Assembly (NCBI GenBank): GCA_963816185.1
Contig: CAWFJJ010000001.1
Span: forward strand, 161,224 to 225,223
DNA length: 64,000 nt
Origin: Thermoanaerobaculia bacterium
Lineage (GTDB): Bacteria > Acidobacteriota > Thermoanaerobaculia > UBA5066
Direction: 5' to 3'
Shown here: positions 8,986 through 57,155 of the stretch, in pieces
Numbering within the stretch: position 1 is the stretch's first letter
Layout of the letters: each line of letters begins with the position of its first letter
The notes under the pieces: model-generated
The model's database searches: none
Told to the model about the DNA's origin: nothing
What the model saw: only the letters and a program-made list of their open reading frames with translations
Program-made: the position numbers and the translations under genes

Positions 8986-9042
8986 GCGGACCTCCTCGAC
9001 GGTCGATTTCCTTATCATGTTCCCCCGGAACGAGGGAAATCG

Positions 9043-30984: not shown

Positions 30985-31062
30985 GAGCCTTCATCATCTA
31001 AGATAGTCTCTCCGCCCCGTGTGTCAAGCGGTTTCGGGTGACTTCGGATAAGCGCTACCTCA

Positions 31063-31830
31063 TTGAAGAACAAGATCTTCCTCCTTTCGGAGCTCCTCCG
31101 AAGAGACCTGGCGGCCCGATACGGGGGCAGTTTCGCGGGTCCCTTATGGGCGGTCCTGAACCCGGCTGTCTTCTGCGCGCTCAACGCCTTCGTGTTCGCC
31201 TTTGTCATCAAACTTCCGGTTCCAGCCGGTTTCAAAGGCAGTTATGTGGAGTTCCTCCTGGCAGGCCTCCTCCCCTGGCTCGGCATCCAGGAGGCGGTGA
31301 TGAGGGCCACGGTGTCGGTGAGCGACCAGGCGCATCTCGTCAAGAAGCTGCGTTTCCCGGTTCATCTCCTGACGGCGTCCGCGCTCGGAGCCGCGCTCGT
31401 CGTCCAGGCGATCGGAATGAGCCTCCTGACCGTTTTCCTCCTCGTGACCGGACGCGGCTCCGTGAATTTCGGCCTCCTCGTCGCCGCCTTCGCTTTCGAG
31501 TGCCTCCTTCTCGCCGGGCCGGCCCTCGTTCTCTCGTCGCTGAACGTCTTCTTCCGCGATCTCGCTCAGCTTCTCCCGCCGTTTCTCATGATCGCGTTCT
31601 ACCTCTCGCCGATCATCTATCCCGAATCGATGGTCCCGCGCTTCGCCGCGCCCTTCCTCGCGTTCAACCCGCTGCGCGATCTCCTCGCACTTTTTCGCGC
31701 TGCGCTGTTCGGGGCGCCGCCGCCATCTCTCGCGCACCTCGCCGGGTGGTCGGCCGTGCTCGTCGTGGTAGGCTTGCTGGGAGTCCGGTTCTTTCGGCGG
31801 TGCCGCCCGTCGTTCGCGGACCTTCTCTAG
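31063..31830 (+). CDS. wzm: ABC-2 type polysaccharide export permease (Wzm/KpsM-like)
   Basis: 255 aa with a TTG start and six TM segments. N-terminal LLRRDLAARYGGSFAGPLWA is typical of Wzm/TagG. Confidence 0.75.
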   Translation: MKNKIFLLSELLRRDLAARYGGSFAGPLWAVLNPAVFCALNAFVFAFVIKLPVPAGFKGSYVEFLLAGLLPWLGIQEAVMRATVSVSDQAHLVKKLRFPVHLLTASALGAALVVQAIGMSLLTVFLLVTGRGSVNFGLLVAAFAFECLLLAGPALVLSSLNVFFRDLAQLLPPFLMIAFYLSPIIYPESMVPRFAAPFLAFNPLRDLLALFRAALFGAPPPSLAHLAGWSAVLVVVGLLGVRFFRRCRPSFADLL

Positions 31831-31893
31831 AATGACTCTTCATCGCCCGAAGGCCGAAGGCCCGAGGGTTCCGTGCGCTGCTAGGAGTTTTCC

Positions 31894-33600
31894 GTGAAAG
31901 TGTCCCTCTCCGCCCTCTTGGCGGCTGTACTGGCTGCGGCTATCGGCTGCTCGTCCTCTGGGCCTTCGGCTCCCGCCGCGAAAACCGCGGCCGAAGAGAA
32001 GGCCGCAGAGGACGCGAAGCGAAGTGAACGCGCGAAGGCGCTCCTCGGCCTGCAGCCTCCGGCGCCGGTTCCGGGAGAAGAGACCGGCGAAGTTCCAACG
32101 ACGACGGTCGTGGACCCTGACACCGGAAAGAAGCTCCTCAGGATCCCAAAGCAGATCCTCTATTACGAGAAAGGGGGACGCCTCTTCAACGCCGTCGTGG
32201 TCGGGCCGGGACTCCCGATCGTCCGCGAGGACGACAAGGCGTACTTCATCCTCGCGCCTCCGGAGCGGCCGAAGCCAGCTCCGGGGAAAGCCGGCGAGCC
32301 GGAACCCGAAGACCTCAAGCCGATCATCGAGCTCCCGGCGAGCGAAGCCGCCGTCGTGACGCCGAAGGTCTCGAAGGGCGCGTTTCGTTTCGAGGAGATC
32401 TCCGATGGTTTGCCGGTCGGGGGCATGTGGCGTGAGAACTTCGACGTGGGAGACGTCCTTGGGCAGGGCCGTCCCCAGATCGTCGTGCCGCCGGCCCGGC
32501 TCACGGGCAACTTCATTCGCGTGTACCGGCTCGACAAGGGCGAGGACGACAAGTGGCGCTGGCACCTGGCCAACGTCACGTTCGAAAACGCCGAGAATAT
32601 TCAAGCGGCTTACGGTGCCGCCACCCTCGCGGACATGGACGGCGACGGCAAGCTCGACATCGTCTTCGGAGGACACGGCTCTGGACCCGCGATCGCGTTC
32701 AACAAGGGTGGAGGCGCGTTCAAGGTCGAGACCCTGGGTCTGCCCCGGCAGATGTCGACGCGTGCGATCGCCGTCGGAGACCTCAACGGCGACGGCCGGC
32801 AGGACCTTCTCGCCATCTCCGACGATCCCGAGTGGCTGCTCGCCGCCGGCAAGCCGCACGCCGACAAGGGCAGCTCCTACGTGCGGGGGTACGACGTCCG
32901 GGCCTTCCTGAACGAAGGCACGCGTTTCCGCGAAATTCACAAGGGCCTCGAAGGAGCCTGTTTCGGGTACTCGATTGCGCTCGTCGTGCCGAAGGACGCG
33001 AAGGACGGGCTGCCGTTCTATTCGTCCGGCTGCCGGTACACCTCGAGCGCCACGCATCTCTTCGAGTTCGATCCCAAGCTTGAGGAATTCCGCTACGCGG
33101 GCGTCGGCGTGGTGGAGCTCTTCTCCCAGCACATGGGATCGGCCGCCGGCACGTACCACGGCCGGCCCGCGGCCTTCGCCTCCTGGTTCAAGCGTTCGCC
33201 GTTCGGCGCCACGCCCAAGATCGACGGGCAGGGGGTCACGGTCTATTACCGGGACGTGGACGGGAAGATGGCGAGCAAGCGCGTTGTGAAGACGCTCCAG
33301 CCCGAGGCCCCCGGGTCATCCGGCATCGCCGTCGGGGACCTGAACGGAGACGGCCTCGACGACGTCGTGTGGTGCGACGAAACGTCGCAGCGCATACGGG
33401 TCTTCTTCCAGACGTCCGAGGGCGAATTCGAAGAGCTGCCGACCGAACGGGAGCCGACCTTCATCAACCATCCGACCTCGCTCCGGATCGCGGACTTCGA
33501 CGGGGACGGGCACAAGGACGTCGCCCTCATGTACCAGTACCTCACAGGGGACGAAACCCGGGCGGGTGGATTACGCGTCTTTCGAGGCCTCCCGAAGTGA
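31894..33600 (+). CDS. FG-GAP/VCBS-repeat beta-propeller lipoprotein
   Basis: GTG start with an AGGAG RBS. Lipobox AAAIGC. Repeated DxDGDGxxD motifs (DMDGDGKLD, VGDLNGDGRQD, VGDLNGDGLDD, ADFDGDGHKD). Confidence 0.7.
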   Translation: MKVSLSALLAAVLAAAIGCSSSGPSAPAAKTAAEEKAAEDAKRSERAKALLGLQPPAPVPGEETGEVPTTTVVDPDTGKKLLRIPKQILYYEKGGRLFNAVVVGPGLPIVREDDKAYFILAPPERPKPAPGKAGEPEPEDLKPIIELPASEAAVVTPKVSKGAFRFEEISDGLPVGGMWRENFDVGDVLGQGRPQIVVPPARLTGNFIRVYRLDKGEDDKWRWHLANVTFENAENIQAAYGAATLADMDGDGKLDIVFGGHGSGPAIAFNKGGGAFKVETLGLPRQMSTRAIAVGDLNGDGRQDLLAISDDPEWLLAAGKPHADKGSSYVRGYDVRAFLNEGTRFREIHKGLEGACFGYSIALVVPKDAKDGLPFYSSGCRYTSSATHLFEFDPKLEEFRYAGVGVVELFSQHMGSAAGTYHGRPAAFASWFKRSPFGATPKIDGQGVTVYYRDVDGKMASKRVVKTLQPEAPGSSGIAVGDLNGDGLDDVVWCDETSQRIRVFFQTSEGEFEELPTEREPTFINHPTSLRIADFDGDGHKDVALMYQYLTGDETRAGGLRVFRGLPK

Positions 33601-33893: not shown

Positions 33894-35640
33894 ATGAAAA
33901 AGTTTTCCGTCCTCATCGCCTTGGTGCTCCTCGCGGTCGCGGGCACGGGCTATGCGGTCACCTGCGCGTATGACAACGTGCCGGCGGCCACGTTGCTCGT
34001 TCCGTACTGGAAGGTGTCCCTGAACGGGGCCGCGGGCGCGCCCATCCCCACCGGCGGCACGGACACCCTCGTGTCGATCGTCAACGTCTCCACGCCGGGC
34101 GTCATCGCGCACGTCACGGTCTGGAACAAGTATTCCAAGGCTGTCATCGACTTCAACCTTCCCCTCACCGGGAAGGACGAAGTCTCGTTCTCGATGCGCG
34201 ACATCATGAACGGCAGGCTGAGCCCGAACTTCCCGCAGTGCGACCTGCTCCTGCCTGCGGCTGATCTCGCGAAGTGCCTGGCGACCTACAAGGTCGACCC
34301 GTGCGGCCTGAAGAACCCCGGCCTGCCGACCGCGGTGTACGTGCCGAGCGTCGGCTTCGGCCAGACCCAGTTCATCCGCTTCTCGCACCCCGATGCGGCT
34401 GCCCTGGGCACCGATGTCCTCACGTCGATCTCGCAGTACAACCTCACCACTCAGGACGCGATCGGAGCGGGCTTCCGCGGCAGTCGTGTGGAACTCGCTC
34501 GACGAGTCCGGCGACGTCACGTCGTTCACGTCCTCCTCGGGCGCGAACATCCTCGACAAGGACAACCCGGCTTGCGGCTGGGCCGCCAGCAACCCGGTGG
34601 GTGGCGCCCTGTCCGGCTACCTCACGATCGACGTCGTGAACTATTGCACGAACTTCTTCCCCGACCAGGCCGACTTCTACAACAAGGACGCGATCGCGAC
34701 GGCCGGTTGGACCCAGTCCGCGTACACGAACTTCCCGTGCACGACCGGAGTCGCATGCGCCGTCACGTACACGCCGAACGTCCTGATCGGCGACGTGTTC
34801 TACGTTGACACCGCCACGCAGGGCGGCAACGTCTCGGGCGACCCGGCTGTCGCGCTCGAGTTCGACGCGCGCCTCCCGTTCTCGAACGCAAATGAATCGA
34901 TAAACAAGACCTTCTTCGGCAAGTTCGTCGAGCTGGTCGCCGGCGCGACGGCCGCGTGCCCCGCAGAGCTCACGATTGGTTGCCAGAACCCGAACGTCCC
35001 CGTGAATTTCCGGTTCCCCGGCGACGGCCGCGAGCCCCTCGGCGACCATTACGGCTTCCGCTATCTGGCCGACCAGGCCAACGGCCTTCAGTCCTGGATC
35101 ACCGTTTGGCGCAGCGACATCTACCTGGACACCGCTGGCCTCCCCACCGAGGTCAACCTGTGTGACTGGGCCGATCCCACGAAGGACGCCAACAACGGCG
35201 CCTCGGGCTCTGGGCTCTTCGACGATCTGCACCAGGTCGTGATCCTCACCTACGACAACGACGAGAACCTGTTCGGCGGCGTCGGCGTTCCTCCGGGCCC
35301 GTCCGGTCAGCAGCCCGGCAGCTCGTCCCCGAACTACATCTTCCTCGAGTCCCAGCGCATCGACCTGCTCGCGTCATCGACCGCAGGGACTGGCTGGAAC
35401 CCGCAGCCCTTCAAGGGCGGCTGGGTCGACATCACGTTCCGCGGACCCACGTGGACGGGCGCGGATGATGAGACCGGCTTCTGGAACCAGGCTTGGGTCG
35501 GCGTGCAGCACACTGCTCCCGGCGCGTTCATCAGCGTCGGTCACGCCGCGTCAGACCTGAACAATGACTTCCAGTGCCAGCCGAACAGGTCCACGTTTGG
35601 AACGTACGTCAACTTCCAAACGCCCTCAAACGGCTTCTAA
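33894..35640 (+). CDS. Secreted Cys-rich protein of unknown function. It has an apparent +1 frameshift near 34478.
   Basis: AGGAGT RBS. Signal peptide MKKFSVLIALVLLAVAGTGYA. ORF 33894..34808 continues in ORF 34393..35640. The junction ggcttccgcggcagtc is consistent with one extra C. The C-terminal frame extends with no stop. The gene is flanked by its own promoter candidate and terminator. Confidence 0.55.
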
Positions 35641-35853: not shown

Positions 35854-38800
35854 ATGCCCCATGTGACCCGCACTCGTCGCCACGATCGTTCTCGCGCGTC
35901 CCTTTTCGTGGCAGGCCCCGCCGCCATGGGACTTCTCCTGGTTCTTGCAACGCTTCCTTCGCGCCTGGAGGGTCAGTGCACGCTGTCGGGCTCGCCGGCT
36001 GCGTTCGAACCGAATCCACCCGGCGTCACGCGGCCCGGAACCCTGAGTAGCGGATTCAACAACAGCCTCGTGCTCTATCAGCCGGCGGCAGCGGTCCGTA
36101 TCGGCTCCTCATGCAGGAGTCGTTCGGCTACTCGGTCCTCGATCTCACGACACCGACGAATCCGACCGCGCTCACGTACCACGACATCCGGTTTCCGTTA
36201 GGCGGCCCCAACAGCGTGCGCGCAAGCCGGCGACGGGCAGAATCTCGTTCAGACGATCGCCGTGTCTCCGGACGGGGTGCGCGGGGCCTTCTCGATGACG
36301 GGGCTGTCGGCGACGATCCAGACGGCCGTCGGAACTCCCAGCGGCGGAGGCGGCTTTACCCTCTGGGGGGATTTCTATCCCAAGCGTTCGAACAGCACGC
36401 TCGTCCAGCACATCGGCACACGTTACATCGCGTACGACATCCACCCGAACGTCGTGACGGCCTCGGACGTCAGCTCGTTACCGGGGGGCTCTCTCCAGCC
36501 CAACAACCTCTCGTACGAGATCACGACGTGGCCGGGCGGAGGCCGCGCGGTCCTGGCCGGGAACTACATTCTCTACCAGATCACCGGCGCCATCCGGGTC
36601 ATCGATGCGTCCCTTCCGGGACCCGTCGGAAACATCACGGCCTCTTACCCGCAGACGTCCATCACGAACGCCGATTTTCCCGGCGGCCGCACGATCGCGA
36701 ACTTCACGGCGGCCGTCGATCCGGCCGACGCGACGAAGCTCTGGGTCCTCGTGGAGCTGAGCGCGCTGGCCGGCGAGAACTCGCCCAGCTACGGGCTTCT
36801 CTCCGTCACGAAGAGCGGCCTCGGAAAGGTCTCGGCGGGCCCGACCTGGCGAGTCCCGTCGCAGACGGGCGACGTGTGGCTGCCCGTGGGGATGAGCTCG
36901 GCTCTCGTTGCGAACGGCACCGACCTGTTCGTCCTGATGTGGGCGGAGAGCCAGCTCCCGACGAACCAGTTCCTCCTCTATTCGACGACGGCGGGAGCAT
37001 GGGGGAGCGTGGCTCCGAGCTCATTTCCCGTGAGCGGCACGACGTTCGCGCTCCCGGGGAGGACGGCGGGCTTCGGGGTCGCGGGGACCAGCTCCGTCTA
37101 CTTGTACGTGCCCACGACGGTGTCCGCATACGTGATCCCGATGTCCTGCGTTTCCGTAAACGCGCCCGCGGTCGCATCGATGACCGTCGCCAACCAGGCG
37201 GGCGCAGCTCTCAACAACGGCGACACCGTGTTCCTGGGCGACCGGATCACGATCACTCCGTCGATCAACCCGCCGCCGTCGACCCAGCCCCTGACGGGAT
37301 TCGGCTGGAACTTCGACCTCGACTTTCACGCGGGCGCCGCGTCCGAAGACAACGGCGCCACCGCGTCGCCACGCCTCCATGCGCCGGACAACACCCTGGG
37401 GGTGTTCGGCGTCAGCCAGCAGGCTCCTCTCCCCGCGACCATCTTCGGCCCTTGTGATCCTCAGGTGGGCGGCGTGACCGTGAGTAGCGGCGCCGGCTGC
37501 TGGACCTCGGTCACGACGAACGGCGCGTTCGCCGGCGGCACGGCGGATTTCAACGCGCAAAGTCCGGTCGCGAAGGCCCTCACCTTCGCATTCGAGGCGA
37601 ACAACGTCCTCGGCAGTGCGGGCTCGAAGCTTTTCACGCTGAACTGGGCGATCCCTACGGCGAAGCTCCAGACGACGCAGGTCCTGTCCGGCAGTCCGCT
37701 CGTGAGCGCCTCCGACGGCCACCCGATGGCCACAGGCTTCAAGTGGTATTTCGGCGCGACTTCGGGGGCCCTGACGCAGGCGGCATGTGCCGGCCCGACG
37801 TGCGTGCCGACGTTCGACACGACGGGCACCTACAACTACTGGCTCACGGCGACGTACGCGAACGGGTACGTGACGCCGGACTGCCCGGGCGCTCCGAACT
37901 GCACGGCCGCGATGGGGACGTACACCATCACCGACTTCGCGCCGGCGTTCACCGTGAACGGCAGCACGAGCGGCCCGATCACGGGGGTCATCAACCAGAA
38001 CTTGAACGTGACGAACAGCTCGCAGCGCGGCCAGACCGTGACCGCCGCGGGAGGTTTCTATTACAGCCTCTGCAAGGTTCCCTGTACGGGCGGGGACCAA
38101 TACGTGCTCTGGGGCACGATGGGCGATGCCCCGCCGAGCGGCTCGCCTCCGTATGGTCCGGCGACGATTCCGATCCCGGCCGACGGCCGGGACCTACGCC
38201 CTCAAGATCAGGGTGAATTACACGAACCCGACCGGGACGGCGTTCTGGCCGGATCCGGCAGGCGTCTCCTACTTCACCGTGAACGTCGTGGACGTGACCC
38301 CGCTCGTCGTGACCGAGTCCGTGAACCCTGCGAGCGCGTCCGTCGGCCAGAACGTGACGTTCTCGTGCAACGCGAGCGGCGGCCTCACGCCCTATTCGTA
38401 CCAGTGGCGAAACCCGATCTCGTTCGTCATCCCTGGCGCAACGGGGCCGACGTACACGACCACGTCGACCGTCGCGGGGGGCGTCACGGCCTACTGCTTC
38501 GTCACGGACAGCCAGCAGCCGGTTCCCGCCTCGAGCAGCGCGAGCGCGACCGCGACGTTCACCGGAGGAGGAGGCGGAGGGGGAGGCGGCGGCGGCAATC
38601 TCTCCGTATACGTCTCGGCGAGTCCAAACCCCGGCGCGGTCGGCCAGCCGGTCACGTTCTCGTGCGGCGCCTCCGGCGGGACGGCTCCCTACTCGTACGT
38701 GTGGCGTTCGCCGGCCACGAGCGCGTTCCAGATCCCGGGAGCGACTTCGTCGAGCTACACGACGTCGTCGTCGGTCGTCGGGAGCCTCTCGGCGGGATGC

Positions 38801-40966
38801 ACCGTCACGGACAACGCCGGCGCGCAGAGCACCAACTCGACTACCGTCGCGATCAACGCTCCGGCCGGTCCGCCCGCCGTGTGCGTGGACGCGAACTTCA
38901 CGGTTCTCGACCGGGGAACCGCCCCCTGGGCCCAGATCCCGTCTTCCTCGGCGCTCGGGATTCAGTACTTCGCGGTGGAAACCGGACAGAAGCTCGCCCT
39001 GGTGGCTTCCGGCACCGGCCTGGCGAGCGCGGACTGGACGTTCGGAAACGGCGACACCGCGAGCGGCAATCCGGTGTGGTATTCGTACGCGACCGCCGGG
39101 ACGTTCAACACGACCCTCACCCTGAACTCGGCAACGGCGGGAACGGCCTGCACGAGGTCCTACAAGTTCATCGTCGCGGGCCCCTCGGGCCTCTTCACGG
39201 CGTACTACGCGGACAGCTCGCAGTTCACCTCGACGCAGGTGCAATCCGGGAAGGAGCTGACTTTCCTGGCCACGGACTCGGCCGACAGCTACGCGTGGGA
39301 CTTCGGCGACGGCACCACGGCGACCGGGAAGAGCGTGACGCACGCGTTCCACGTCAGCGGCGGGACGAGCGTCACGTTCACGACGACCCTCACCGTGACG
39401 ATCGGCTCGCAGAACTTGACGACGACGCAGAACTTCACCGTCATTCCGCCGCCCGAGCCGCCGAAGTGGTTCGTCGCGGGCATGGCGTACCTCCAGGGCT
39501 CGCTCGGGGACACGCTCTGGCAGACGGACGTCACCCTTTTCAACCCCGACCCGACCCGTCCGGGTACGTATTCACTCGCCTTCCTCGACGGAAGATCCCC
39601 CGTCGATCCGGCCAACCTCGTCTGGAAGACGATCAATCTCGGCGCGCAGCAGAGCATCTCGTCGCCGAACATCCTGGCCTTCTTCGGGCAGCCGCTCGGA
39701 AGCTACGGAGCCCTTCTCGTGCGGGGCGACTCGGCTCCCGTACCGCCCGTTCTGACGGCGCGTACGTTCAACAGCGGCGACCCCACGAAAGGGACGTTCG
39801 GTCTGTCCGTGCCGTCCACGCAGCCGTCCAGCGGCCTGACGCCTCAGGCCGCGCTCGCGCAGCAGTTCCTCATCGGCCTGCGTGACGACGACACGGCTTA
39901 CACGAACATCGGCCTCATGAACGTCACGACCGACTGGAGCCACGCGCGGCTCGAGTTCACGGATCGCAGCGGAGCCACGAGCTTCGGCAATGTGAACGTG
40001 GACGTGCCGCCGTACGGCGTCGCGCAGCTCTCGCGCCCGCTCTTCGCGGCTCCGCCCAACGGCGTGGGGTTCACGGATGCGCTGGACGAATTCAGCGTCA
40101 AGGTGTCGGTCCTCTCCGGCGGCGCGGTCTTCCCCTACGCGACCGTCATCGACCGCCGGTCGACGGACTCGATCGTCGTGACCGCGTCCGACCGGCCCTC
40201 GCCCACGTCTCGCATGCCCGGCATCATTCGCCTGCAGGGCGCGAACAACACCACGTGGCGGAGCCGTTTCTACATCACGAACCCGTCGACGACGTCCCGT
40301 AAGGCGTCGATCTCCTACTCCTTCATTCCCTGCGACGCGACCGGCTTCTGCAGGGGCCGCGTCACGGGCCTGCAGGCCGACGTGACGATGCTGCCTGGCG
40401 AGACGCTCTGGGCCGACGACTTCCCGAAAGTGTGGCTGGCCGGCTTCGGGTTCGACGTCTCCGACACCACGTCCTACGCGTCCTCGTACGTCGACGTCTC
40501 TCCTTCCCCCGACGACCCGAACCAGGATCCGCTGCTCGTCCTCGGCCAGACGTACAACGACCAGCCGAACGGCCCCGTGGGCCTTCAGGTGCCGGGCTTC
40601 ACCGACGCGGACACCGCTTCGAAGAACGGCGCTTACAAGCGCCTCCTCCTCGCGGGCCTGATCTCGAACGCCTCGTACCGCACGAACGTCGCGGTGTTCC
40701 TCCAGAGAGGCACGTCGGGAAAGTGCACGTTGCACGTGCTGTCCGACACCGGCGTCGAGCTGGGCCACCAGGACATCGGATTCGGCGGCACGAACACGTT
40801 CGTCCAGATCAACGACTCCGCGCTCTTCGGATCGATCTCCGGCAACAAGGACCGGCTCACGATCGTGATCGACTCGTTCGACGGCTCGCCCATCTCGGCG
40901 TACGCGACCGTCGTCGACAATACCTCGGGCGACGCGACGTTCCTGAAGGCCCAACCGGCCCCCTGA
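35854..40966 (+). CDS. Giant secreted Ser/Thr/Gly-rich surface protein (~1700 aa) with PKD-like repeats and a poly-Gly11 tract. It is broken by at least 3 apparent frameshifts.
   Basis: Signal peptide in ORF 35854..36201. The protein continues in frame 0 (36111..), frame 1 (36262..) and frame 2 (38126..40966). Each junction gives a continuous sensible protein. PKD signatures: WDFGDGTTATGKSVTHAF and TFSCNASGGLTPYSYQWR/TFSCGASGGTAPYSYVWR. The junction at ~38190 (ggccgggacc) fits one extra G. Confidence 0.55.
38564..38596 (+). repeat. (GGN)11 simple repeat encoding Gly11
   Basis: The run ggaggaggaggcggagggggaggcggcggcggc lies inside the giant protein gene. Confidence 0.8.
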
Positions 40967-41074: not shown

Positions 41075-42271
41075 ATGCCCTCTCTCCCTTATTCGTTCTC
41101 GAACCTGAGCAAGGTCTACCGCCTCTACTCGGCTCCGCGCGACCGCCTTCTCGAAGCGCTGACCGGCCGCCCGCGACACGCCGAGGTCCACGCGCTCTCG
41201 GACGTTTCCGGGGGCATCGACCGGGGCGCGGTCCTCGGCGTCATCGGCGAGAACGGCTCGGGCAAGAGCACGCTCTTCAAGATCCTTGCGGGAACCACGG
41301 CCGCGACGTCGGGCAGCGTGAGCCTGCCGGGGCGGGTGGCGTCGATCCTCGAGCTGGGGGGGGCCTTCCATCCGGAGGACACGGGCCGGCGCAACGTGAT
41401 CCTGCAGGCCGCCCTCGCGGGGCTCTCGCGCGAGGAGGTCTCCGCGGCTTTGCCGGAGATCGAGGCGTTCGCCGAGCTCGGCGATTTTTTCAACCGGCCC
41501 GTCAAGACGTACTCCTCGGGCATGCAGATGCGGCTCGCGTTCTCGGTCGCGACCGCGGTTCTGCCCGACGTGATCCTGCTCGACGAAGCGCTCGCCGTGG
41601 GCGACGGCCGTTTCCAGAAGAAGTGCGTCGACCGCATTTTCGAGCTCAAGGCCGCGGGCAAGACGATCTTCTTCTGCAGCCACGCCATGTACTACGTGTC
41701 GACGCTGTGCGACCGCGCGCTCTGGCTGAACGCGGGCCGCGTGGAGGCCGCGGGCGACGCGCAGAGCGTCGTTCTGGAGTATGAGAAGTTCCTCGCGCGG
41801 AAGGACGCCGCCGTGCCCCATCAACCCCGCCCGCCCGCGGATTCGCACGGACACATCACGGGCCTTTCCTTCGTCGGCGCCGACGGGATCGACACGGAAG
41901 AATTCCGTCCGAACGAGCCGTGGGTCGCCGAGGTCTCGTTCGAGGGCGACACACCCGAACGGCTCATGCACGTTCATCTGGGCGTCGCGACGCTCGATGG
42001 TGTCGTGTGCTTTACGGCCGACTCTCGTCTCGATGGCGCGGGACCCTTCGGAGGACGAACCCGGCACCGGATCCGCATCGCCCTCGAGAAATTGCCTCTC
42101 GGGAAAGGAGAGTTCGTCGCGAACGTCTTCCTTGGCGACGAGAAAGCTCTCGCGCTCTACGACTCGCGGAGCCGCACGTTCCGCGTGGAATCCGAGACTT
42201 GGCGGAACGGTCTGATGAGCCCGCCGCTCACGTGGAAGACGATTCCCGCGCGGGGCGACGGCCCCGGATGA
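41075..42271 (+). CDS. wzt: Polysaccharide ABC transporter ATP-binding protein Wzt with a C-terminal extension (putative carbohydrate-binding domain)
   Basis: 398 aa. Walker A GENGSGKST, signature YSSGMQMRL, Walker B ILLDEA. About 150 aa lie beyond the NBD (GHITGLSFVGADG ... ). This resembles the Wzt C-terminal O-antigen-binding domain. Confidence 0.85.
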   Translation: MPSLPYSFSNLSKVYRLYSAPRDRLLEALTGRPRHAEVHALSDVSGGIDRGAVLGVIGENGSGKSTLFKILAGTTAATSGSVSLPGRVASILELGGAFHPEDTGRRNVILQAALAGLSREEVSAALPEIEAFAELGDFFNRPVKTYSSGMQMRLAFSVATAVLPDVILLDEALAVGDGRFQKKCVDRIFELKAAGKTIFFCSHAMYYVSTLCDRALWLNAGRVEAAGDAQSVVLEYEKFLARKDAAVPHQPRPPADSHGHITGLSFVGADGIDTEEFRPNEPWVAEVSFEGDTPERLMHVHLGVATLDGVVCFTADSRLDGAGPFGGRTRHRIRIALEKLPLGKGEFVANVFLGDEKALALYDSRSRTFRVESETWRNGLMSPPLTWKTIPARGDGPG

Positions 42272-45374: not shown

Positions 45375-47387
45375 CTAGCGCGCCCTTCCTAGGCGCGTGC
45401 GAAGCACGCGGCGCGCTAGCTGGGCGGCCTTCCAGACCCTCGAGCCGGCGATCGCGCTCAGCGTCTTTCCGAGCTCGTGTCGCTCGGCCACGAGGCTCGT
45501 GCGCGTGCGGTGCTCGAAGGCGAGGAGCTCGAGCGCGGCACGCTCGCCCGGCGACACCTCCCGCGCAGGAGGGAGCCGGTCCATGAACGCGCGGAAACGC
45601 GTGGCCGTGAGCTTCCATGTGAAGCGCCGAGCCGTCTCGACGCCCTTTGCCGCGAGTCGCTCTCGGAGCGCCGGATCGTCGAGCAGCCGCCGGATGCCCG
45701 CCTCGAGCGCCTTTGAATCCCGCGGGGGCACGACGAGCGCGTTGACTCCGTCGATCGCGTATTCGGCGGCGCCGCCGGAGTCTGTCAGGACGCACGCGGC
45801 CCCGCTCGCCATGCCCTCGAGCCCGATGAGGCCGAAGCCCTGGAAGAGAGAGGGATCGATCACGATGTGTACCGTCGAGAGGAGGTTCGGCACCGCGTCC
45901 CGCTGTATCGTGCCGAGATGCGTGTGCCGGAAGCGGGGCGCGTCGGCCGGCACCGTCGCGTGCCCGAAGAGGACGATGTCGACGCCGGGCCGGTTCGCGA
46001 TCTCGGCGAGCGCGGGAAGAAGGAACTTCATCCCACGCCGCTCGTCCTGCCGCAACATCGCGGTGATGCGGATCGGGGGGCCCGCCTGCCTGTCCCCCCG
46101 CGGGTAGTACACGTCGGGATCCGCGCTGATCGGGATGGGAGTCGCCACGTGTCCGTCGCGCGTCTCGATCTCGCGGGCGAGCCAGGTCGAGATCGTGACG
46201 ATGCGGGGTATGAGGTCGTACGTTCGCGCGACGTACTCGGGCGAGTCGAAGCCGAACCAGCCTTCGTAATCCTGGACGAAGTAGGCCGTCTGGATTCCGC
46301 GGGATGCCGCGGCGGCAGCCACGTGGGCTGCGGTCTGGTATCCCGTGGCGACGAGCAGCTTCGCGGGCGGGCAGCGTTCGAGGAATTCCGCCGCCGAGAG
46401 CCGAAGCGGCCGGAAGAAGAGCTCCATCTCGATTTCCGGCGGCACGGTCTCGAAGACGACGACGCCGGCGCGCACGCCCTGGAGCACGAGCGCGTTCGCG
46501 AGCTCGAGGACGTCCGCCACGCCCCCGTAGATCCCGAGGAGCGGCAGGACGAAGAGGACGTCGTAAGGAGCCGCCGGCTCGGAATCGGGCAGCGTCCACT
46601 CGAACGTCACGGCGTCGCGCACGGCGCCGAGCTCGTTCCTGCCGTTGAACTCGGCGAGCTCCTTCTCGTGCCGTTCACGCCAGCGGGACATCAGGATCCT
46701 GAGGTTCGCAGCGATCCGCACATCGGAATCGGGAAAGCTCGCGCCTTGGCGGTGGTGAATCCACGTGTCGTCGGCGACGACGCAGCGCCAGCCCGCCGCG
46801 CGCGCCCGGTAATGGAGGTCGGTCTCCTCGCAGTAGCCGCGTCCGAAGACCTCGTCGAAAACCCCGAGCGTGCGGATGACCTCGCGCCGCACGAGAAGGC
46901 AGTGGCCGACGATCGTCGTCGCATCGGGGTACCGCGCGGGGCTGGTCCGCGCGACGCGGCGGGCGAACGAGAAGACGTTCTCGCCGGGAGGGAGCTTCAC
47001 CGAGAGGTTCACGGCGCTGCCCGAGAGGGGGCAGCAGAGGCCGATCGCGGGATCCCCTTCGCAACGCGCCACCATCCGCTCGAGAGCGCCCTCCGTGAGA
47101 AGGGTGTCGGAATTCAGGAGGCAGACCCACGGCGCGTCGGAGAACAGGAGCCCGCGGTTCGCGGTCTTCACGAAGCCGAGATTCACCTCGTTTTCGAGGA
47201 GGACGATCCCTTCCTGCGCCCTCAGGAACTGCGTGGTCCGGTCGTTGCTCCCGTCGTTGACGACGACGACGCGCGCCCAGGAAGGGGCGAAGCGGCGCAC
47301 GCTCTCGAGGCAGTCGCGTGTCGAGCGGAGCGCGTTGTAGACCGGGATGACGAGGTCGCAGCGCACTCCCGCGGTTGGAACCGTCAT
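45375..47387 (-). CDS. Bifunctional glycosyltransferase (N-terminal GT2 + C-terminal GT4) with a C-terminal helical tail
   Basis: 670 aa from MTVPTAGVRCDLVIPVYN. The GT2 part has VVVNDGSND, CLLNSD and GHCLLVRREV. The GT4 part has GFGLIGLEGMASGAACVLTD. ATGA overlap with the next gene. Confidence 0.8.
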   Translation of the reverse strand: MTVPTAGVRCDLVIPVYNALRSTRDCLESVRRFAPSWARVVVVNDGSNDRTTQFLRAQEGIVLLENEVNLGFVKTANRGLLFSDAPWVCLLNSDTLLTEGALERMVARCEGDPAIGLCCPLSGSAVNLSVKLPPGENVFSFARRVARTSPARYPDATTIVGHCLLVRREVIRTLGVFDEVFGRGYCEETDLHYRARAAGWRCVVADDTWIHHRQGASFPDSDVRIAANLRILMSRWRERHEKELAEFNGRNELGAVRDAVTFEWTLPDSEPAAPYDVLFVLPLLGIYGGVADVLELANALVLQGVRAGVVVFETVPPEIEMELFFRPLRLSAAEFLERCPPAKLLVATGYQTAAHVAAAAASRGIQTAYFVQDYEGWFGFDSPEYVARTYDLIPRIVTISTWLAREIETRDGHVATPIPISADPDVYYPRGDRQAGPPIRITAMLRQDERRGMKFLLPALAEIANRPGVDIVLFGHATVPADAPRFRHTHLGTIQRDAVPNLLSTVHIVIDPSLFQGFGLIGLEGMASGAACVLTDSGGAAEYAIDGVNALVVPPRDSKALEAGIRRLLDDPALRERLAAKGVETARRFTWKLTATRFRAFMDRLPPAREVSPGERAALELLAFEHRTRTSLVAERHELGKTLSAIAGSRVWKAAQLARRVLRTRLGRAR

Positions 47388-48409
47388 CGCTTCAGGAGCT
47401 CCTTGAGCTTCCACCACGGTGTGAAGAGACGCCACGCGAGAGAGCTGTTCATGGCATCGACGGTCGCGCGAAGTCGGACGTTCTCGACGGCGAGCGCCTG
47501 CTCACGCGTCGCGGACTCTTCGCTCTGGCGCGCGGTGTGATCCCGTGTCGCACGCAGCTCGGCTTCGCGGGCGGCGGCCGCGGCGAGGGCCGCCCGGTCC
47601 GCCTCACTCCGCGCGCGGGCCTCTCCGGCTTCGCTCTCGAGGCTGTCGATGACGGCCATCTCGGTCGAAACCGACCGCCGAGCCGCATGTTTCTCGAAGA
47701 GGCGGCGGCGAGCCGTCTGCGCTTCCGCCGAGTGCCACGGAAAGGCGGCCGTGATGTTCGACGCGTCGTTACGGACCCGGTAGACGGCGGTGACGGAAGG
47801 CAGATGATGGAACCGCGTCCGCGCGGAGAGGCGGATGAGGAAATCCCAGTCCTCGAACTCGTCGAAGGTCTCGTCGAAGCCGCCGATCTCTTCCGCGAGT
47901 GCGCGGCGATGCGCGAGGCCGATGAGGGGAATGTCATTCTTGTAGAGGAGACGCGCGGCATCGAACGGCCTCCCGTAGACCGTGATCTCGCGCCCGCCGC
48001 GGTAACGACCGTCGTCGCCGAGCACCTGCTCGATCTGGCGGACGGACGTGTAGGCGGCGCGGTACTCGTCGCTGCCGTCGAGAAAACGCACCAGCGTGTC
48101 GAGATGAGCGGGCAGGTAGAGGTCGTCGTCGTCGAGATACGCCACGTACGTGCCGCGCGCGGCCGCGAGGCCGGCGTTCAGGGACCGCGTTCTCCCGCCC
48201 GGTGGAGGCGGAACGAGCACCTGGATGGCACGGCCCGGCGCAGGGTCGAGAAGTCCGGCCGGAAGGAGGCCGCCGTCGTTCACGAGAACGGTCTCGAAGT
48301 CGGAGAACGTCTGGGCGCGAAGGCTGTCGAGGGCCTCGGCGAGGAGGCTCGGCCGGTCCTTCGTCCGGAGCAGCACGGAAACGCGCGGCGCGCTTGCCTG
48401 ATCGACCAC
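47384..48409 (-). CDS. Glycosyltransferase family 2 with a C-terminal coiled-coil and a Trp-rich amphipathic tail
   Basis: GTG start. GT2 motifs VSVLLRTKDRP ... VLVNDGG ... YLDDDD. The last ~100 aa are heptad/Ala-Arg-Glu rich and end in SSLAWRLFTPWWKLKELLKR. Confidence 0.8.
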   Translation of the reverse strand: MVDQASAPRVSVLLRTKDRPSLLAEALDSLRAQTFSDFETVLVNDGGLLPAGLLDPAPGRAIQVLVPPPPGGRTRSLNAGLAAARGTYVAYLDDDDLYLPAHLDTLVRFLDGSDEYRAAYTSVRQIEQVLGDDGRYRGGREITVYGRPFDAARLLYKNDIPLIGLAHRRALAEEIGGFDETFDEFEDWDFLIRLSARTRFHHLPSVTAVYRVRNDASNITAAFPWHSAEAQTARRRLFEKHAARRSVSTEMAVIDSLESEAGEARARSEADRAALAAAAAREAELRATRDHTARQSEESATREQALAVENVRLRATVDAMNSSLAWRLFTPWWKLKELLKR

Positions 48410-49325: not shown

Positions 49326-50429
49326 ATGGTCACTTCCTCTTCAGATCGAATCCGTCCGGCCCTCGTCGCCTGTGCCGCGCTCTGCGCGGCCCTTCTCGTG
49401 TTCCCCCGGGCTGCCAACGCCGCTGGACAGAGCGGCGGGCACGGAGGAGGTGGCGGAAGTCACTCCGGAGTAAGTCACTCCGGCGGGGGCCATGTGAGCA
49501 GCTCTCACTCCTCGGGCCGCACGACCGCCGCGTTCCACGGCGGCAGCCGCGGCGGATTCCATGGTGGGTTCCATGGCCGCGGTTTCCGCCACTTCCGCGG
49601 GGGCTTCTCTCCGTGGTGGGGCTGGGGTTGGGGTTGGGGCGGGTGGCCGTATGACTGGTGGTGGGGCGGCCCGAGCGTCTATGTCGTCACGGGCGATGAA
49701 GACGGCTATGTGGACGTCGCCGCGCGCACCGGTCGATACGCGATCGTGAAGACCGACGTCTCGCCCGAAGAGGCGCAGCTCTACCTCGACGGCAAGTACA
49801 TCGGCTCCGCCGACGACTTCGACGGAATGCCCGGCTACCTCTATCTCGGCCCCGGGAAATACCACCTCGAGTTCCGTCTGCCGAATTACACGACCTTCGC
49901 CACGGATCTCGACGTGACGCCGGGCCAGCGCGTGCGCCTCGACCAGAAGCTGAAGCTCGCGCCGGGCAAGAGCGCCCTCGACCAGTTCCCGCCCGAATCG
50001 AAGGGCACGCCTCTCGGCCGCGTCTTCGCAAAGGGCGCCGACGGGGCCGCTGAAGCGGCCCCGCCTCCGGGGCCTCAGGGGCCGCGGTACGGGACTCGCC
50101 GCGACGACGGATGGAGCGACCGCGACACCCCGCCTCAGGGCGAGGGAATGTCCGAGGAGCAGATGGACGCCCGGCCCGAGCCCCTGCCGCGGCGGGCCGC
50201 AAACCGCGCGCGCATGAGATTCAAGGTCACGCCCGAGGACGCCGCCGTCTACGTCGACGACAAATACCTCGGCGCGGGCGAAGATCTCGAGGCCAACCCG
50301 CGGGGCGTCGTCACGGATCCCGGCAAGCACACGATCACCGTCACGCGTCCCGGTTACAAGACGAAGACCGTCGACATCACCGTCCGCATCGGCGCCCCGG
50401 TGGACGTCGTCGTGGAGCTCGAGAAGTAA
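49326..50429 (+). CDS. Secreted protein with a Gly/His-rich and Trp-rich low-complexity region followed by two PEGA domains
   Basis: Signal peptide MVTSSSDRIRPALVACAALCAALLVFPRAANA. It has the runs GGHGGGGGSHSGVSHSGGGH and WWGWGWGWGGWPYDWWWGG. Two PEGA-like repeats (PEEAQLYLDGKYIG ... PGKYHLEF and PEDAAVYVDDKYLG ... PGKHTITV). Confidence 0.7.
   Translation: MVTSSSDRIRPALVACAALCAALLVFPRAANAAGQSGGHGGGGGSHSGVSHSGGGHVSSSHSSGRTTAAFHGGSRGGFHGGFHGRGFRHFRGGFSPWWGWGWGWGGWPYDWWWGGPSVYVVTGDEDGYVDVAARTGRYAIVKTDVSPEEAQLYLDGKYIGSADDFDGMPGYLYLGPGKYHLEFRLPNYTTFATDLDVTPGQRVRLDQKLKLAPGKSALDQFPPESKGTPLGRVFAKGADGAAEAAPPPGPQGPRYGTRRDDGWSDRDTPPQGEGMSEEQMDARPEPLPRRAANRARMRFKVTPEDAAVYVDDKYLGAGEDLEANPRGVVTDPGKHTITVTRPGYKTKTVDITVRIGAPVDVVVELEK
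49614..49670 (+). repeat. Trp/Gly codon-rich low-complexity tract (tggggttgg repeats)
   Basis: Read directly. It encodes WWGWGWGWGGWPYDWWWGG. Confidence 0.7.
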
Positions 50430-54080: not shown

Positions 54081-56106
54081 TTGAGCCAGGATTCGTTCGA
54101 GGAGCTCCGCGAAGAGCTGGAGAAGACCCGCGCCGAGCTTTCGGAGGCGCGGGCGCGCATCGCGGGGATGGAGATGAGCTTCTTCTGGAAGGTCCGCAAT
54201 GCGTGGTGGAGGCTCAAAGGCGGGCTCGCCGGCAGCGCGCCGTCCGGCGAGCACACCGCGCGGCCCGCTGCGGATCCAGCGCTCGTCCACGTTCCCGGCT
54301 TCGCGCCCGTTCGCATCCGGCGCGCCGCATTCGATTGCTCGTCGGATGCCGTCGACGTCGTCGTTCTCGTTCACGACGATCTGCCCGTTCTCGAGGAGTG
54401 CCTCGGGGCCCTGCTCCGGCACGCGCGTCCCCCTTACAAGCTCTTCCTCGCCGATCCGGGCGTGTCGCCCGCGCCGCGGACCTGGCTGGAGGGTTTCGCG
54501 CGCGATCAGGGAGCCGTCCTCGTGCAGGGCGCAGACGCCTTCCAGGAAGCGTGTGGCGCGGGCGCGTCACGCTTCGCTCTCCTGCTCGACGGGCGCGCGC
54601 GCGTCGCGGCGGATTTCCTCGACCGGCTGATCGCCTGTCTCGCCTCCGATCCGAGAGACGGCGGGTGTCATTCCCCTCGCCGCCGACATTCCGGGCGCCG
54701 GCCCGGCCTTCGAGCGCGTCGAGCGCGCGCTGGCCGACGGGGATAGGGCTCCCGCGACTCTCCTCGCCGCCGAGTCGGCTCGGCTCTTTCCGGCATCCGG
54801 AGACGGTGGCGGCTGCGCGCTCCTCGTGAGGCGACCGGCATTGCGCTCCGGCGGATCGGAGCGCTCGCCAGGTGAGGTCCTCGCCCGGATGCGGGCCGAT
54901 AAGAAGCGGATTCTCCTTGCGGACGACACGTGGGTGGCCGGCGCCGCCGCCGCGGCCCCGGAGGCGCCGGACCGCGTGACCGCCGGCATCGCGGCCCGTT
55001 TCGCGATTCTGCCGGAGCGGGTCGGCCTTCGGGAGCGCGCGCGACGGCGGTGGGAAGGGAAGCGCGTCCTGTACGTCCTGCCGGTGCTCGAGCGCGGAGG
55101 CGGGTCGAACGTCGTCCTGGCGGAAGCGCGGGCGATGACGCGGATGGGCGTCGAAGCGCGCGTCTTCAACCTCGCGGGTCACCGATCCGTCTTCGAGAAG
55201 AGCTATCCGGCGCCGGGCGTTCCGATCGTCTACGGACGCGAGTCCGATCTCGTCGAGATCGCGCAGGGCTTCGACGCCGTGATCGGGACGGCTCACTACT
55301 CGGTGCCTTGGATGGTGCCGCTCGCGAGGCTTTCGCGGCCTCCGGTTCTCGGCTACTGCATCCAGGATTACGAGCCGCTCTTCTACGCCGAAGGCTCGGA
55401 CGATTGGAAGCGTGCGTTCGCCTCGTACTCTCTCGTGCCGGGCATGCGACGTTTCTCGAAGTCCGCGTGGAATGCCGACGAGGTCGTCGCCCGGACGGGC
55501 CTCGACTGCGCGCTCGTGAGCGCGAGCTTCGACGCGGACATCTTCCGCCCCCGGCTGCCGGAGCCTGCCGCAAGCCCGGTGCGGATCGCCGCGATGGTGC
55601 GTCCCTCGACGCCGCGGAGGCAGCCAGGCCTCACCGTCGACGTGATGCGGGCCCTCGCGCAGAAGCTCGGCGACCGGGTCGAGGTCGTCCTCTTCGGGTC
55701 CGAGCGGTCGGATCCCGCCCTGCGTCCACTTCGCCTCGACTTTCCGCACCGCTTCCTCGGCGTCCTCGACGACCGGCAGCTCTCGGCTCTCCTGTCGCAG
55801 GTGCACGTCTTCGCGGATCTCTCGACGTATCAGGCGCTCGGCGTCGCATCGCTCGAGGCCATGGCATCGGGCGCCGTGGTCGTCGTCCCGAAGACGGGCG
55901 GAGCGAACACATTCGCCACGCACGAGATCAACGCCCTCGCCGTCGACACGTCGTCCCGGGACGCTTGCGTCGCCTGCCTCGAGCGGCTCGCCACGGACGA
56001 GGCGCTCCTCCGGCGCCTCGCCGCTCAGGCGATCGCGGACGCCGGTCTCCATACGCCCGACCGCGCGGCGGCGGGCATCCTCGAGGTCCTGTTTGCACAA
56101 GCGTAG
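54081..56106 (+). CDS. Bifunctional glycosyltransferase (N-terminal coiled-coil + GT2 + GT4). It has an apparent frameshift near 54640.
   Basis: ORF 54081..54746 has a coiled coil (EELREELEKTRAELSEARARIAGME) and a GT2 start (VDVVVLVHDD). The GT2 domain continues in the frame of ORF 54826..56106 (GVIPLAADIPG ... GGCALLVRR), then the GT4 part (ASLEAMASGAVVVVP). The junction ggcgggtgtc fits one extra G. Confidence 0.65.
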
Positions 56107-57155
56107 GGTCCACGTCCTCCACGGCTTCTATGGCGCGGAGATTCCCTACAGCTGCACGTACATCCGCCTCCTGCGCCCGCTCTCGCATCCGGCCCTCGCT
56201 GACGAGATCGACCTGACGCACGGCACGGCGGAAGCGGTGCCCGACTGCGACCTCCTCGTCGTCGAGCGGCACGTTCTCTGGCCGTACGAGAGGCAGCTGG
56301 ACGGATTCGTCCGCGTGCTTTCCCGTTGCCGGCAGAAGGGCATCCCCGTCGTCTACGAGCTCGACGACAACCTGCTCGACCTCCACCGCGACGAGCCGTG
56401 GGAGACCGTACCCGGGAGACTCGCTCCGCGCCGTCGTCGCGTTTCTCGCGCGCCAGGCCGACGGCATGATCGTCTCGACGCCGGCGCTCGCGGAGCGCGT
56501 GGCGGATCTCAGAAGCGGGGTTCTCGTCGTGCCGAGTGCGCTCGACGAACGGCTCTTCGGCTCCGCGCCGGATCCCTTCCTGTCGCATTCATCCACGGTG
56601 ACGATCGGCTACATGGGCACGCTGACGCACGAGGCGGACCTCCGCATGGTGCTCGCGCCGCTCCGGGCGCTCCTCGCGCGCCACGCCGGAAGGGTGCGGC
56701 TGGAGCTCGTGGGCGGAGTCGCGGGGCGGAGGACGGCGTCACTTTTCGATGGCCTGCCGTTCCGGATGCGGGAGCCGGGGAACGAGGACCCTTACCCGAG
56801 GTTCGTCCCGTGGATGCGGCAGCATCTGCGATGGGACGTCGCGATCGCGCCGCTCGAGGACAACCCTTTCACGCGGTGCAAGTCCGACCTCAAGTACCTC
56901 GACTACGCGGCGCTCGGGATTCCGGCCGTCTTCAGCGACGTGCGCCCCTACCGGGATACGGTGCGCCATCGCGAGACGGGTCTCCTCGCTGCGAACGAGC
57001 CCAAGGCGTGGGCGGACGCGCTCGAGGAAATCGTGAGAGACGGCGCCCTTCGCGCACGGCTCGCGGAGGCCGCGAAGGCCGAGGTACACGGCAGCCGGAT
57101 GCTGAGGACGAACGCCGTGCTTTGGCGCGAGGTCCTGCTTTCGGTCGGTCGTTAG
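56093..57155 (+). CDS. Glycosyltransferase (GT-B, family 1/4-like). It has an apparent frameshift near 56420.
   Basis: N-terminal part in ORF 56093..57895 (TTG start). It continues in ORF 56466..57155 (GDSLRAVVAFLARQADGMIVSTPALAERV ... IGYMGTL). The junction gtacccgggagac fits one extra G. Confidence 0.6.

Follow-up and report, generated by a model that had tools for sequence, protein, structure and literature searches.

The window analysed in this work is a stretch of 64,000 nucleotides from the genome assembly of a Thermoanaerobaculia bacterium (GCA_963816185.1, contig CAWFJJ010000001.1, positions 161,224 to 225,223). Three proteins encoded in the window, designated A, B, and C, carry a short tryptophan-rich motif at the end of a helical stalk or coil. 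The genes of these proteins lie in a glycan-biosynthesis cluster that spans 41-58 kb of the window, as identified by a Pfam scan. The cluster starts from 41 kb with Wzt, which is followed by a glycosyltransferase (GT) of the GT4 family, a GNAT acetyltransferase, a GT2, protein C, protein A, and a PIG-L deacetylase. The genes after PIG-L encode two secreted proteins, a GT-C/PMT_2 membrane protein, a methyltransferase, protein B, another GT4, and another methyltransferase. The closest protein and DNA relatives of the window also point to an uncultured member of Thermoanaerobaculia (Acidobacteriota). The G+C content of the window is about 69%, and the third-position GC content was used as the criterion that separates real genes from the many spurious open reading frames (ORFs). 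The first-pass annotation of this DNA had reported a shared Trp-rich motif on two glycosyltransferases (A and B). Both sequences that it quoted are present, and protein C was found as a third carrier.

Stalks and motifs of the three proteins

Protein A (47384-48409, minus strand; coordinates include the stop codon) is a GT2 of 341 amino acids with a GT-A fold (PF00535, 57 bits) that is followed by a C-terminal stalk and the motif. The C-terminal end of protein A reads ...VDAMNSSLAWRLFTPWWKLKELLKR. The homologue search returned 560 homologues of protein A and the protein P0001, which is 100% identical to it. The AlphaFold2 model of protein A, which was constructed from a 71-sequence alignment, has a mean predicted local distance difference test score (pLDDT) of 93.7, and the GT-A domain occupies residues 1-240. 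The stalk is modelled as a single continuous helix of 76 residues (residues 247-322; 47444-47671, minus strand; assigned by DSSP, pLDDT 93-98). This corresponds to a length of about 11 nm at 0.15 nm per residue, and the orthologues range from about 9 to 19 nm. The junction motif LAWRLFTPWWKLKELLK (47387-47443, minus strand; assigned by DSSP on the same model) consists of a break at S323 and a second helix at residues 324-340. Protein A exhibits an extended helical stalk between its catalytic domain and its putative membrane-proximal end.

The A family was compared across 71 orthologues that reach down to 56% identity. Three residues of the motif (S323, W326, and R327) are the same in all of them, and T330, P331, W332, W333, and K334 are each at least 90% conserved. 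The stalk that precedes the motif is poorly conserved among the orthologues. D93-D96 (YLDDDD, an acidic DxD-type motif) are also invariant in the 71 orthologues, as expected of a GT2 with a GT-A fold. The Foldseek search of the A model against PDB returned generic GT-A enzymes as the top matches and nothing informative for the tail. The distant A-like GT2s (about 35% identity; L062, L063, L070-L072, L076, L077, and L080) end with ...LLDAIFKSRTWKLHTIVERVK. Their tail variant keeps the Ser and the Trp-Lys pair while the second Trp pair is absent, an indication that the motif has S-x-x-W-[KR] as its core.

Protein C (45375-47435, minus strand) combines a GT2 domain (PF00535, 75 bits) and a GT4 domain (PF13692, 69 bits) with a short C-terminal coil and a variant of the motif. 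The stop codon of A (TGA, 47386-47384) overlaps the ATG of C (47387-47385) as ATGA. The overlap implies translational coupling of the two genes and a probable start of C that lies 16 codons past the first GTG of its ORF. The C-terminal end of protein C reads ...LVAERHELGKTLSAIAGSRVWKAAQLARRVLRTRLGRAR. This tail (45378-45554, minus strand), located with the motif profiles described below, consists of a predicted coil at residues 628-664 and the motif SRVWKAAQLARRVLRTRLGRAR at residues 665-686, and it is the third-best match of those profiles in the window (E 0.002-0.005). The tails of C orthologues usually read SRVWKAAQRWRGLRDRVRG or SRAWRFLRPWRKLKNRLR. A frameshift in the C tail (AAQLARRVL instead of AAQRWRGL) was considered and rejected since the variant is common to L001, L004, and L017. 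The presence of the same variant in three close relatives, one of which is a short-read metagenome-assembled genome, shows that it is genuine and not a sequencing error.

Protein B (54081-56106, plus strand; located by frame plot and Pfam GT1/GT4 matches) has the reverse layout, in which the coil and motif are N-terminal and are followed by a linker, a degenerate GT-A-like domain, and a GT4 domain. Protein B starts with MSQDSFEELREELEKTRAELSEARARIAGMEMSFFWKVRNAWWRLKG. The N-terminal helix of about four heptads covers residues 3-32 (54087-54176, plus strand; helix 3-31 in the AlphaFold2 model of the orthologue P0125). The junction motif consists of S33 and the helix FFWKVRNAWWRLKGGL (54177-54227, plus strand; break at 32-33 and helix at 34-49 in the model). 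After helix 34-49, the model of the orthologue exhibits a disordered linker, the GT-A-like domain, a long helix, and a GT-B domain. Among 52 homologues, down to 41% identity, L13, L20, and M30 of the N-terminal helix are invariant and L9, I27, and A28 are nearly so. S33, F35, W36, R39, and W42 of the motif are invariant among the same homologues.

The region 54081-56106 had been described as one bifunctional GT frame of which the N-terminal half was labelled GT2. Neither description fits the window. The coding frame of B is broken in the window, where frame 0 stops at 54746 and the remainder lies in frame +1. The break results from a 1-nt insertion near 54650-54657 that the orthologous loci all lack (L017, L004, and L002 compared). 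The frameshift-repaired B has 674 amino acids, and the orthologues are intact with 666-681 amino acids. Pfam returned no GT2 match for the N-terminal half and only GT1/GT4 families in B. The N-terminal half carries LLLDGRA at the expected DxD position and has almost no invariant residues among the 52 homologues, so that both the Pfam domain and the DxD of GT2 are missing from it. A GT-A-like fold is nevertheless predicted for this half (AlphaFold2, orthologue P0125), and more distant B homologues carry a recognisable PF00535. The GT-A-like domain of B (approximately residues 90-290; 54350-54900) may be catalytically dead. The adjacent GT4 gene (56093-57155) also has a 1-nt insertion at 56400-56410, where the window reads GGGAGACCGTACCC versus GGGAGAC-GTACCC in the orthologous loci, and this gene is likewise split into two frames. 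The two insertions in B and in this GT4 are either assembly indel errors or a sign of two decaying neighbour genes.

Conservation, phasing, and physical character of the module

In the six frames of the window, the strict pattern W[RK]x4WW[RK]LK is matched at two sites only, versus an expectation of 5e-6. The spacing is W-x5-WW rather than the W-x3-WW that had been annotated. Motif profiles were built from 40-residue segments anchored on the first Trp and were searched against 753 six-frame ORFs. The best non-self match of the A-family-only profile is the N-terminus of B (E 5e-5), followed by the C tail (E 5e-3). The best non-self match of the B-family-only profile in the window is the A tail (E 1.4e-4). 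The motif that these proteins share is non-random. Both families exhibit an invariant Ser three positions before the first Trp and an invariant Trp at that position (S-x-x-W-[RK]). The signature of the module is S-x-x-W-[RK]-h-x3-4-[WY][WRF][KR]-h-[KR], in which the Ser is followed by a Trp-rich and basic helix of 15-20 residues, and the motif peptides of interest are SLAWRLFTPWWKLKELLKR and SFFWKVRNAWWRLKGGL. The motif recurs on the A, B, and C orthologues in 80 related loci wherever the flanks extend that far.

The invariant residues of the motif lie beside a variable stalk in A and beside a variable GT-A-like domain in B, a pattern that points to purifying selection on the motif. Both independent AlphaFold2 models (A and the B orthologue) exhibit the same layout of helix, break, and helix. 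This common geometry suggests that the Ser may be a helix cap that angles the short helix away from the stalk.

The length of the A stalk varies in steps. Measured from the conserved catalytic-domain anchor FEDWDF to the motif, 117 A orthologues span 127 to 193 residues, and this distance modulo 7 falls in class 0 or class 4 in 107 of the 117. The insertions in the A stalk are visible as whole heptads, such as repeats of VRLQAEA, and some B homologues have insertions of seven amino acids in their N-terminal helix. A phased helical spacer would be expected to vary in length in this heptad-wise manner. In both the A and B families, the four or so heptads that directly precede the motif exhibit conserved hydrophobic residues at the a and d positions (3-4-3-4 spacing), as averaged over each family. 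The first half of the profile returned weak and non-significant PDB matches, all of which are canonical coiled coils. The A tail had been annotated as about 100 amino acids of heptad-like sequence. This holds for the clean heptads next to the motif and not for the upstream part, where the 3.5-residue periodicity is weak, and the model resolves the tail into helices at residues 247-322 and 324-340. The A stalk is 33% charged and 26% Ala, with nine opposite-charge i/i+4 pairs in 76 residues. An ER/K single alpha-helix was considered for the upstream stalk of A and was rejected on this composition, since the charge density of 33% is well under that of typical ER/K helices.

The motif had also been described as an amphipathic helix. 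The helical wheel of the A motif exhibits a contiguous Leu face flanked by Trp and Lys. The hydrophobic moments do not set the motif apart from shuffled sequences (A 0.49, z 1.5; B 0.35, z 0.3; C 0.40, z 0.7). The Wimley-White interfacial sums are -2.1 kcal/mol for A, -4.0 kcal/mol for B, and +4.8 kcal/mol for C, of which the last is unfavourable, and the net charges of the motif are +4, +4, and +8, respectively. Binding of the A and B copies to the membrane interface is plausible on these values. The module resembles the in-plane amphipathic anchors of peripheral glycosyltransferases in being a short terminal helix of Trp, Leu, Lys, and Arg with a net positive charge. These anchors are usually conserved in physico-chemical character alone, whereas the individual Ser, Trp, and Arg/Lys residues of the module do not vary even between unrelated enzyme families. 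Conservation of this strictness suggests a role in structure or in protein contacts that is more specific than that of a generic amphipathic anchor.

Counterpart in WbdD and occurrence in other proteins

The proteins of the E. coli HS O9 rfb cluster (L082; wbdD at 8967-11093) were scanned with the combined profile of acidobacterial A and B. Residues 573-604 of O9 WbdD (HHLSNENQQLRQEIEKIHRSRSWRMTKGYRYLGL) match the profile with 21.6-23.5 bits. None of 5000 composition-preserving shuffles of the C-terminal 249 residues of WbdD reached the real score, and the maximum among the shuffles is 12.2 bits. When ENVRLRATVDAMNSSLAWRL of A is aligned with ENQQLRQEIEKIHRSRSWRM of WbdD, the core Leu, Val/Ile, Met/Ile, the core Asn, the Ser, the Trp, and the Arg coincide. 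The stalk end of A thus carries an element that resembles the one at the membrane-proximal end of the WbdD stalk. Judged by sequence, the module is the same kind of element as the one that stands at the membrane-proximal end of the WbdD ruler. The profile scan detected the motif only in WbdD of this cluster and not in WbdA, WbdB, or WbdC.

The matched residues of WbdD lie where the ruler coiled coil meets the C-terminal region that associates with the membrane and recruits WbdA (PMC3482155, PMC3447403, PMC5082667, PMC6286764, PMC11231755). WbdD is trimeric via a helical bundle (PMC3482155), and its coil is about 200 Å long (PMC5082667). The C-terminal region beyond the coil is described as structurally uncharacterised (PMC6286764), and the soluble construct of WbdD residues 1-600 was cut inside the element (PMC3447403). 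The C-terminal coiled coil has been reported as a marker of terminating enzymes, where the terminator is distal and the coiled-coil protein is a membrane-associated scaffold (PMC11231755).

WbdD of E. coli O9/O9a and Klebsiella O3 is similar to A in its layout of a catalytic domain, a long helical stalk, and a membrane-proximal element, in being encoded in a cluster with Wzm and Wzt, and in having the stalk length as the variable parameter. WbdD differs from A in its methyltransferase and kinase domains, in place of which A has a GT2, and in its longer coil. Beyond its motif, WbdD continues for about 100 residues (605-708), the part that binds the membrane and WbdA, whereas A stops 15 residues past the Trp. 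WbdA of the WbdD system is without the motif, whereas the two dual-GT proteins of the window bear their own copies. No sequence similarity between WbdD and the carriers in the window was detected outside the module.

Three other systems were compared by description. ORF7 of Klebsiella pneumoniae O4 (GT137) is similar to A in being a single glycosyltransferase with a C-terminal coiled coil, encoded in a cluster that depends on an ATP-binding cassette (ABC) transporter and in which the polymerase activities reside on separate, complex-forming polypeptides (PMC11231755). ORF7 differs in being CMP-Kdo-dependent and in having a novel GT-B-like fold with a TPR-like bundle, whereas A is an ordinary GT2 with a GT-A fold. 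WbbB of Klebsiella O12 and ORF6 of Klebsiella O7 have a coiled coil between the terminator and the polymerising GT modules. The carriers P0301 and P0366 described below, with the module between GT domains, are similar to them in this respect. Both are single polypeptides, whereas the stalked GT and the dual-GT proteins of the window are separate and each carries the module. By analogy, the layout of A parallels that of WbdD and is closest to that of the terminating glycosyltransferase ORF7 of Klebsiella O4. The first-pass annotation had drawn the analogy with WbdD, and the analogy is largely on target. The match at WbdD residues 573-604, the Wzm/Wzt context, the layout of A, which is one reported for chain terminators (PMC11231755), and the phased stalk lengths speak for it; the amphipathicity of the motif lacks statistical support.

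The homologue search with the C-terminus of WbdD returned five fragments. A DNA search of E. coli genomes returned a second class of wbdD 3' sequence (33 of 263, 80-90% identity; hits H11 and H12). This class is probably the WbdD of another serogroup that shares the C-terminal module.

The distribution of the module was searched with a 38-sequence profile against 1.84 billion representative proteins, with E<=1e-3. The module is carried by 560 protein clusters at 50% identity, and most matches exhibit the consensus IAAMExSKFWKLRxxWFxLKxxLGL. The module is mostly found at the extreme C-terminus (usually 3-6 residues from the end), sometimes at the N-terminus, and rarely in the middle of the protein, as in P0301 and P0366 where it lies between GT domains. 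Seventy long matches were assigned domains, which comprise 22 S-adenosylmethionine (SAM) methyltransferases, 21 GT2, 13 GT1/GT4, and a few FkbM, radical SAM, and sulfotransferase domains. The carriers of the module belong to the enzyme classes expected for terminators and polymerases. One distant locus (L083, 2394-4220) encodes a double methyltransferase with a coil and the motif directly downstream of wzm and wzt. The consensus, as seen in the profile matches P0224-P0369, extends to hundreds of methyltransferase and glycosyltransferase families far beyond Acidobacteria. No family in Pfam covers the motif itself, the sequence profile search of PDB returned no structure that contains it, and searches of the literature for the motif strings did not turn up any mention.

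The ABC transporter of the window consists of the ATPase Wzt with a C-terminal extension (41075-42271, plus strand; Pfam ABC_tran, 67 bits) and the ABC-2 permease Wzm (31042-31830, plus strand; Pfam ABC2_membrane, 50 bits). The extension of Wzt has about 150 amino acids and matches Wzt_C with 24.3 bits (E 3.3e-5), under the cut-off of 30.4. Of the 33 loci with full flanks, 17 have Wzt in synteny with A and C and 26 have C next after A, and the gene order PIG-L/A/C/GT2/GNAT/GT4/Wzt is kept across related loci. The three carriers thus share their glycan cluster with a Wzm/Wzt ABC transporter, which is the setting of the coiled-coil ruler and terminator class.

Proposed role of the module and alternative explanations

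The feature most likely belongs, by analogy, with the coiled-coil ruler or scaffold proteins of ABC-transporter-dependent glycan assembly. We propose that a WbdD-like module at the stalk end gathers the enzymes at the membrane and that the long-stalked GT2 is a distal, probably chain-terminating enzyme, and we give this proposal an even chance of being correct. Membrane binding, oligomerisation, the terminator role, and the ruler function are properties that we infer for these proteins. The motif end would be the membrane-proximal end. The gathering would occur via binding of anionic lipids through Trp and Lys/Arg, via bundling of the terminal heptads, or via both. B and C would be polymerising enzymes beside the membrane, a placement that follows from their short stalks (about 30-35 residues) and from the two catalytic domains in each. 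The GT2 domain of A would be held about 11 nm off the membrane by its 76-residue stalk and would reach only chains that have grown that long, which is why A is placed as the distal and probably chain-terminating enzyme. The stalk length of A would then contribute to the chain length, as in WbdD and ORF7 of Klebsiella O4. This ruler and terminator picture is in line with the synteny with Wzt, with the coupling of A and C through their ATGA overlap, and with the weak resemblance of the Wzt extension to Wzt_C. The presumptive polymerases bear their own module, unlike WbdA. This suggests like-with-like bundling or independent membrane targeting, and a way of building the complex that is unlike the recruitment of WbdA by WbdD.

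Several findings weigh against this proposal. Only nine of the 22 a/d positions are strongly hydrophobic in the window's own sequence of the A stalk, and the family-averaged 3.5-residue periodicity is not significant at positions -70 to -36 (p 0.2). The heptad signal is weak in the upstream two-thirds of the A stalk, and an oligomeric coiled coil over its full length is therefore no more than putative. The motif does not significantly exceed the shuffles in hydrophobic moment, the C copy is predicted to partition unfavourably at the membrane interface and has no second Trp pair in this lineage, and the near-invariance of the motif is unusual for a purely lipid-binding helix. The confinement of the motif to WbdD in E. 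coli O9 means that it is not a general requirement for polymerases. The score of the C-terminal domain of Wzt is below the Pfam cut-off. The system is possibly non-functional in this genome since B and the adjacent GT4 are frameshifted in the assembly. A may just as well have an initiating, adaptor, or branching function.

The same findings on amphipathicity bear on a second explanation, in which the module serves as a tag for co-assembly (oligomerisation) instead of anchoring the enzymes in lipid. The terminal heptads and the S-x-x-W helices of A, B, and C would form a homo- or hetero-oligomeric bundle, perhaps a trimer like that of WbdD. The register of this bundle and its cap would be provided by the conserved Ser, Trp, and Arg, and the membrane attachment would come via another partner, for example Wzm/Wzt or the lipid-linked substrate. 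We regard this explanation as possible and somewhat unlikely. It accounts for motif moments that do not exceed those of the shuffles, for a C copy that is unfavourable at the interface, and for a conservation that far exceeds the needs of a generic amphipathic helix. It also agrees with the presence of exactly three carriers in the cluster, with the translational coupling of A and C, which suits a fixed stoichiometry, and with the heptad core of B, which runs into the motif (F34, V38, A41, and L45). The trimeric helical bundle of WbdD (PMC3482155) is a precedent for it. However, the AlphaFold2 models place a helix break at the Ser rather than a continuous coil, and the net charge of +4 to +8 and the Trp content of the motif suit an anionic membrane interface. 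The counterpart in WbdD, moreover, opens the region that is reported to be needed for membrane association (PMC3447403, PMC6286764).

An extension of the co-assembly explanation can be drawn beyond the window. The S-x-x-W-[RK] module may be a general co-assembly tag of ABC-transporter-dependent glycan factories, where the carriers, be they glycosyltransferases, methyltransferases, sulfotransferases, or radical SAM enzymes, join one membrane-bound helical bundle and the stalk length of each carrier fixes its working height. We consider this generalisation speculative and unlikely. If it were true, the factory would be a height-ordered assembly line in which the polymerases work beside the membrane and the modifying or terminating enzymes at a greater distance from it, and WbdD would be its first characterised case.

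The tails could also be ordinary dimerisation or stability helices that have no spacing role, in which case the motif would be a helix-capping end that was inherited with a mobile coiled-coil segment. Many glycosyltransferases oligomerise via terminal helices, and the weak heptad signal in much of the A stalk is in line with such a role. We nevertheless find this explanation quite improbable. The lengths of the A stalk differ widely (by 66 residues) and in phase, beside a motif that stays invariant. Methyltransferases, sulfotransferases, and glycosyltransferases all bear the module, typically at the extreme terminus. The module is present at the end of the ruler in WbdD, which is an experimentally established ruler, and it is linked to Wzm and Wzt.

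A chance resemblance, in which an Ala/Arg/Glu-rich translation of DNA with high GC content (about 69% in the window, with many spurious Arg/Ala-rich ORFs) coincides with a cluster of Trp, was rejected as next to impossible, since both frames are coding frames with hundreds of homologues, the pattern expectation is 5e-6, the profiles detect each other reciprocally, and 560 independent clusters carry the module.

Coiled-coil rulers are the accepted means of setting the length of O-antigens and related glycans in ABC-transporter-dependent pathways. The module is a short, sharply conserved, and apparently undescribed element at the membrane and polymerase junction of such a ruler, and it is common to WbdD, the three acidobacterial enzymes, and hundreds of methyltransferase and glycosyltransferase families. 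S592, S594, W595, and R596 of WbdD provide a concrete mutational target in an established genetic system. In uncultured bacteria, the motif also offers a simple means of recognising terminator or scaffold proteins by sequence.

Wzm and Wzt lie about 9 kb apart in the window, and the interval between them encodes large secreted proteins, which is an unusual arrangement for a wzm-wzt pair. The secreted proteins are an FG-GAP-repeat protein (31885-33600), a protein that matches none of the families (34312-35640), and a PKD/Ig-repeat protein in which 11 Gly stand in a row (38126-40966). Another ORF (approximately 49330-50429, plus strand) has a start that resembles a signal peptide, a Gly/His/Ser-rich stretch (GGHGGGGGSHSGVSHSGGGH...), a Trp/Gly run (FSPWWGWGWGWGGWPYDWWWGG), and C-terminal repeats that resemble PEGA domains.

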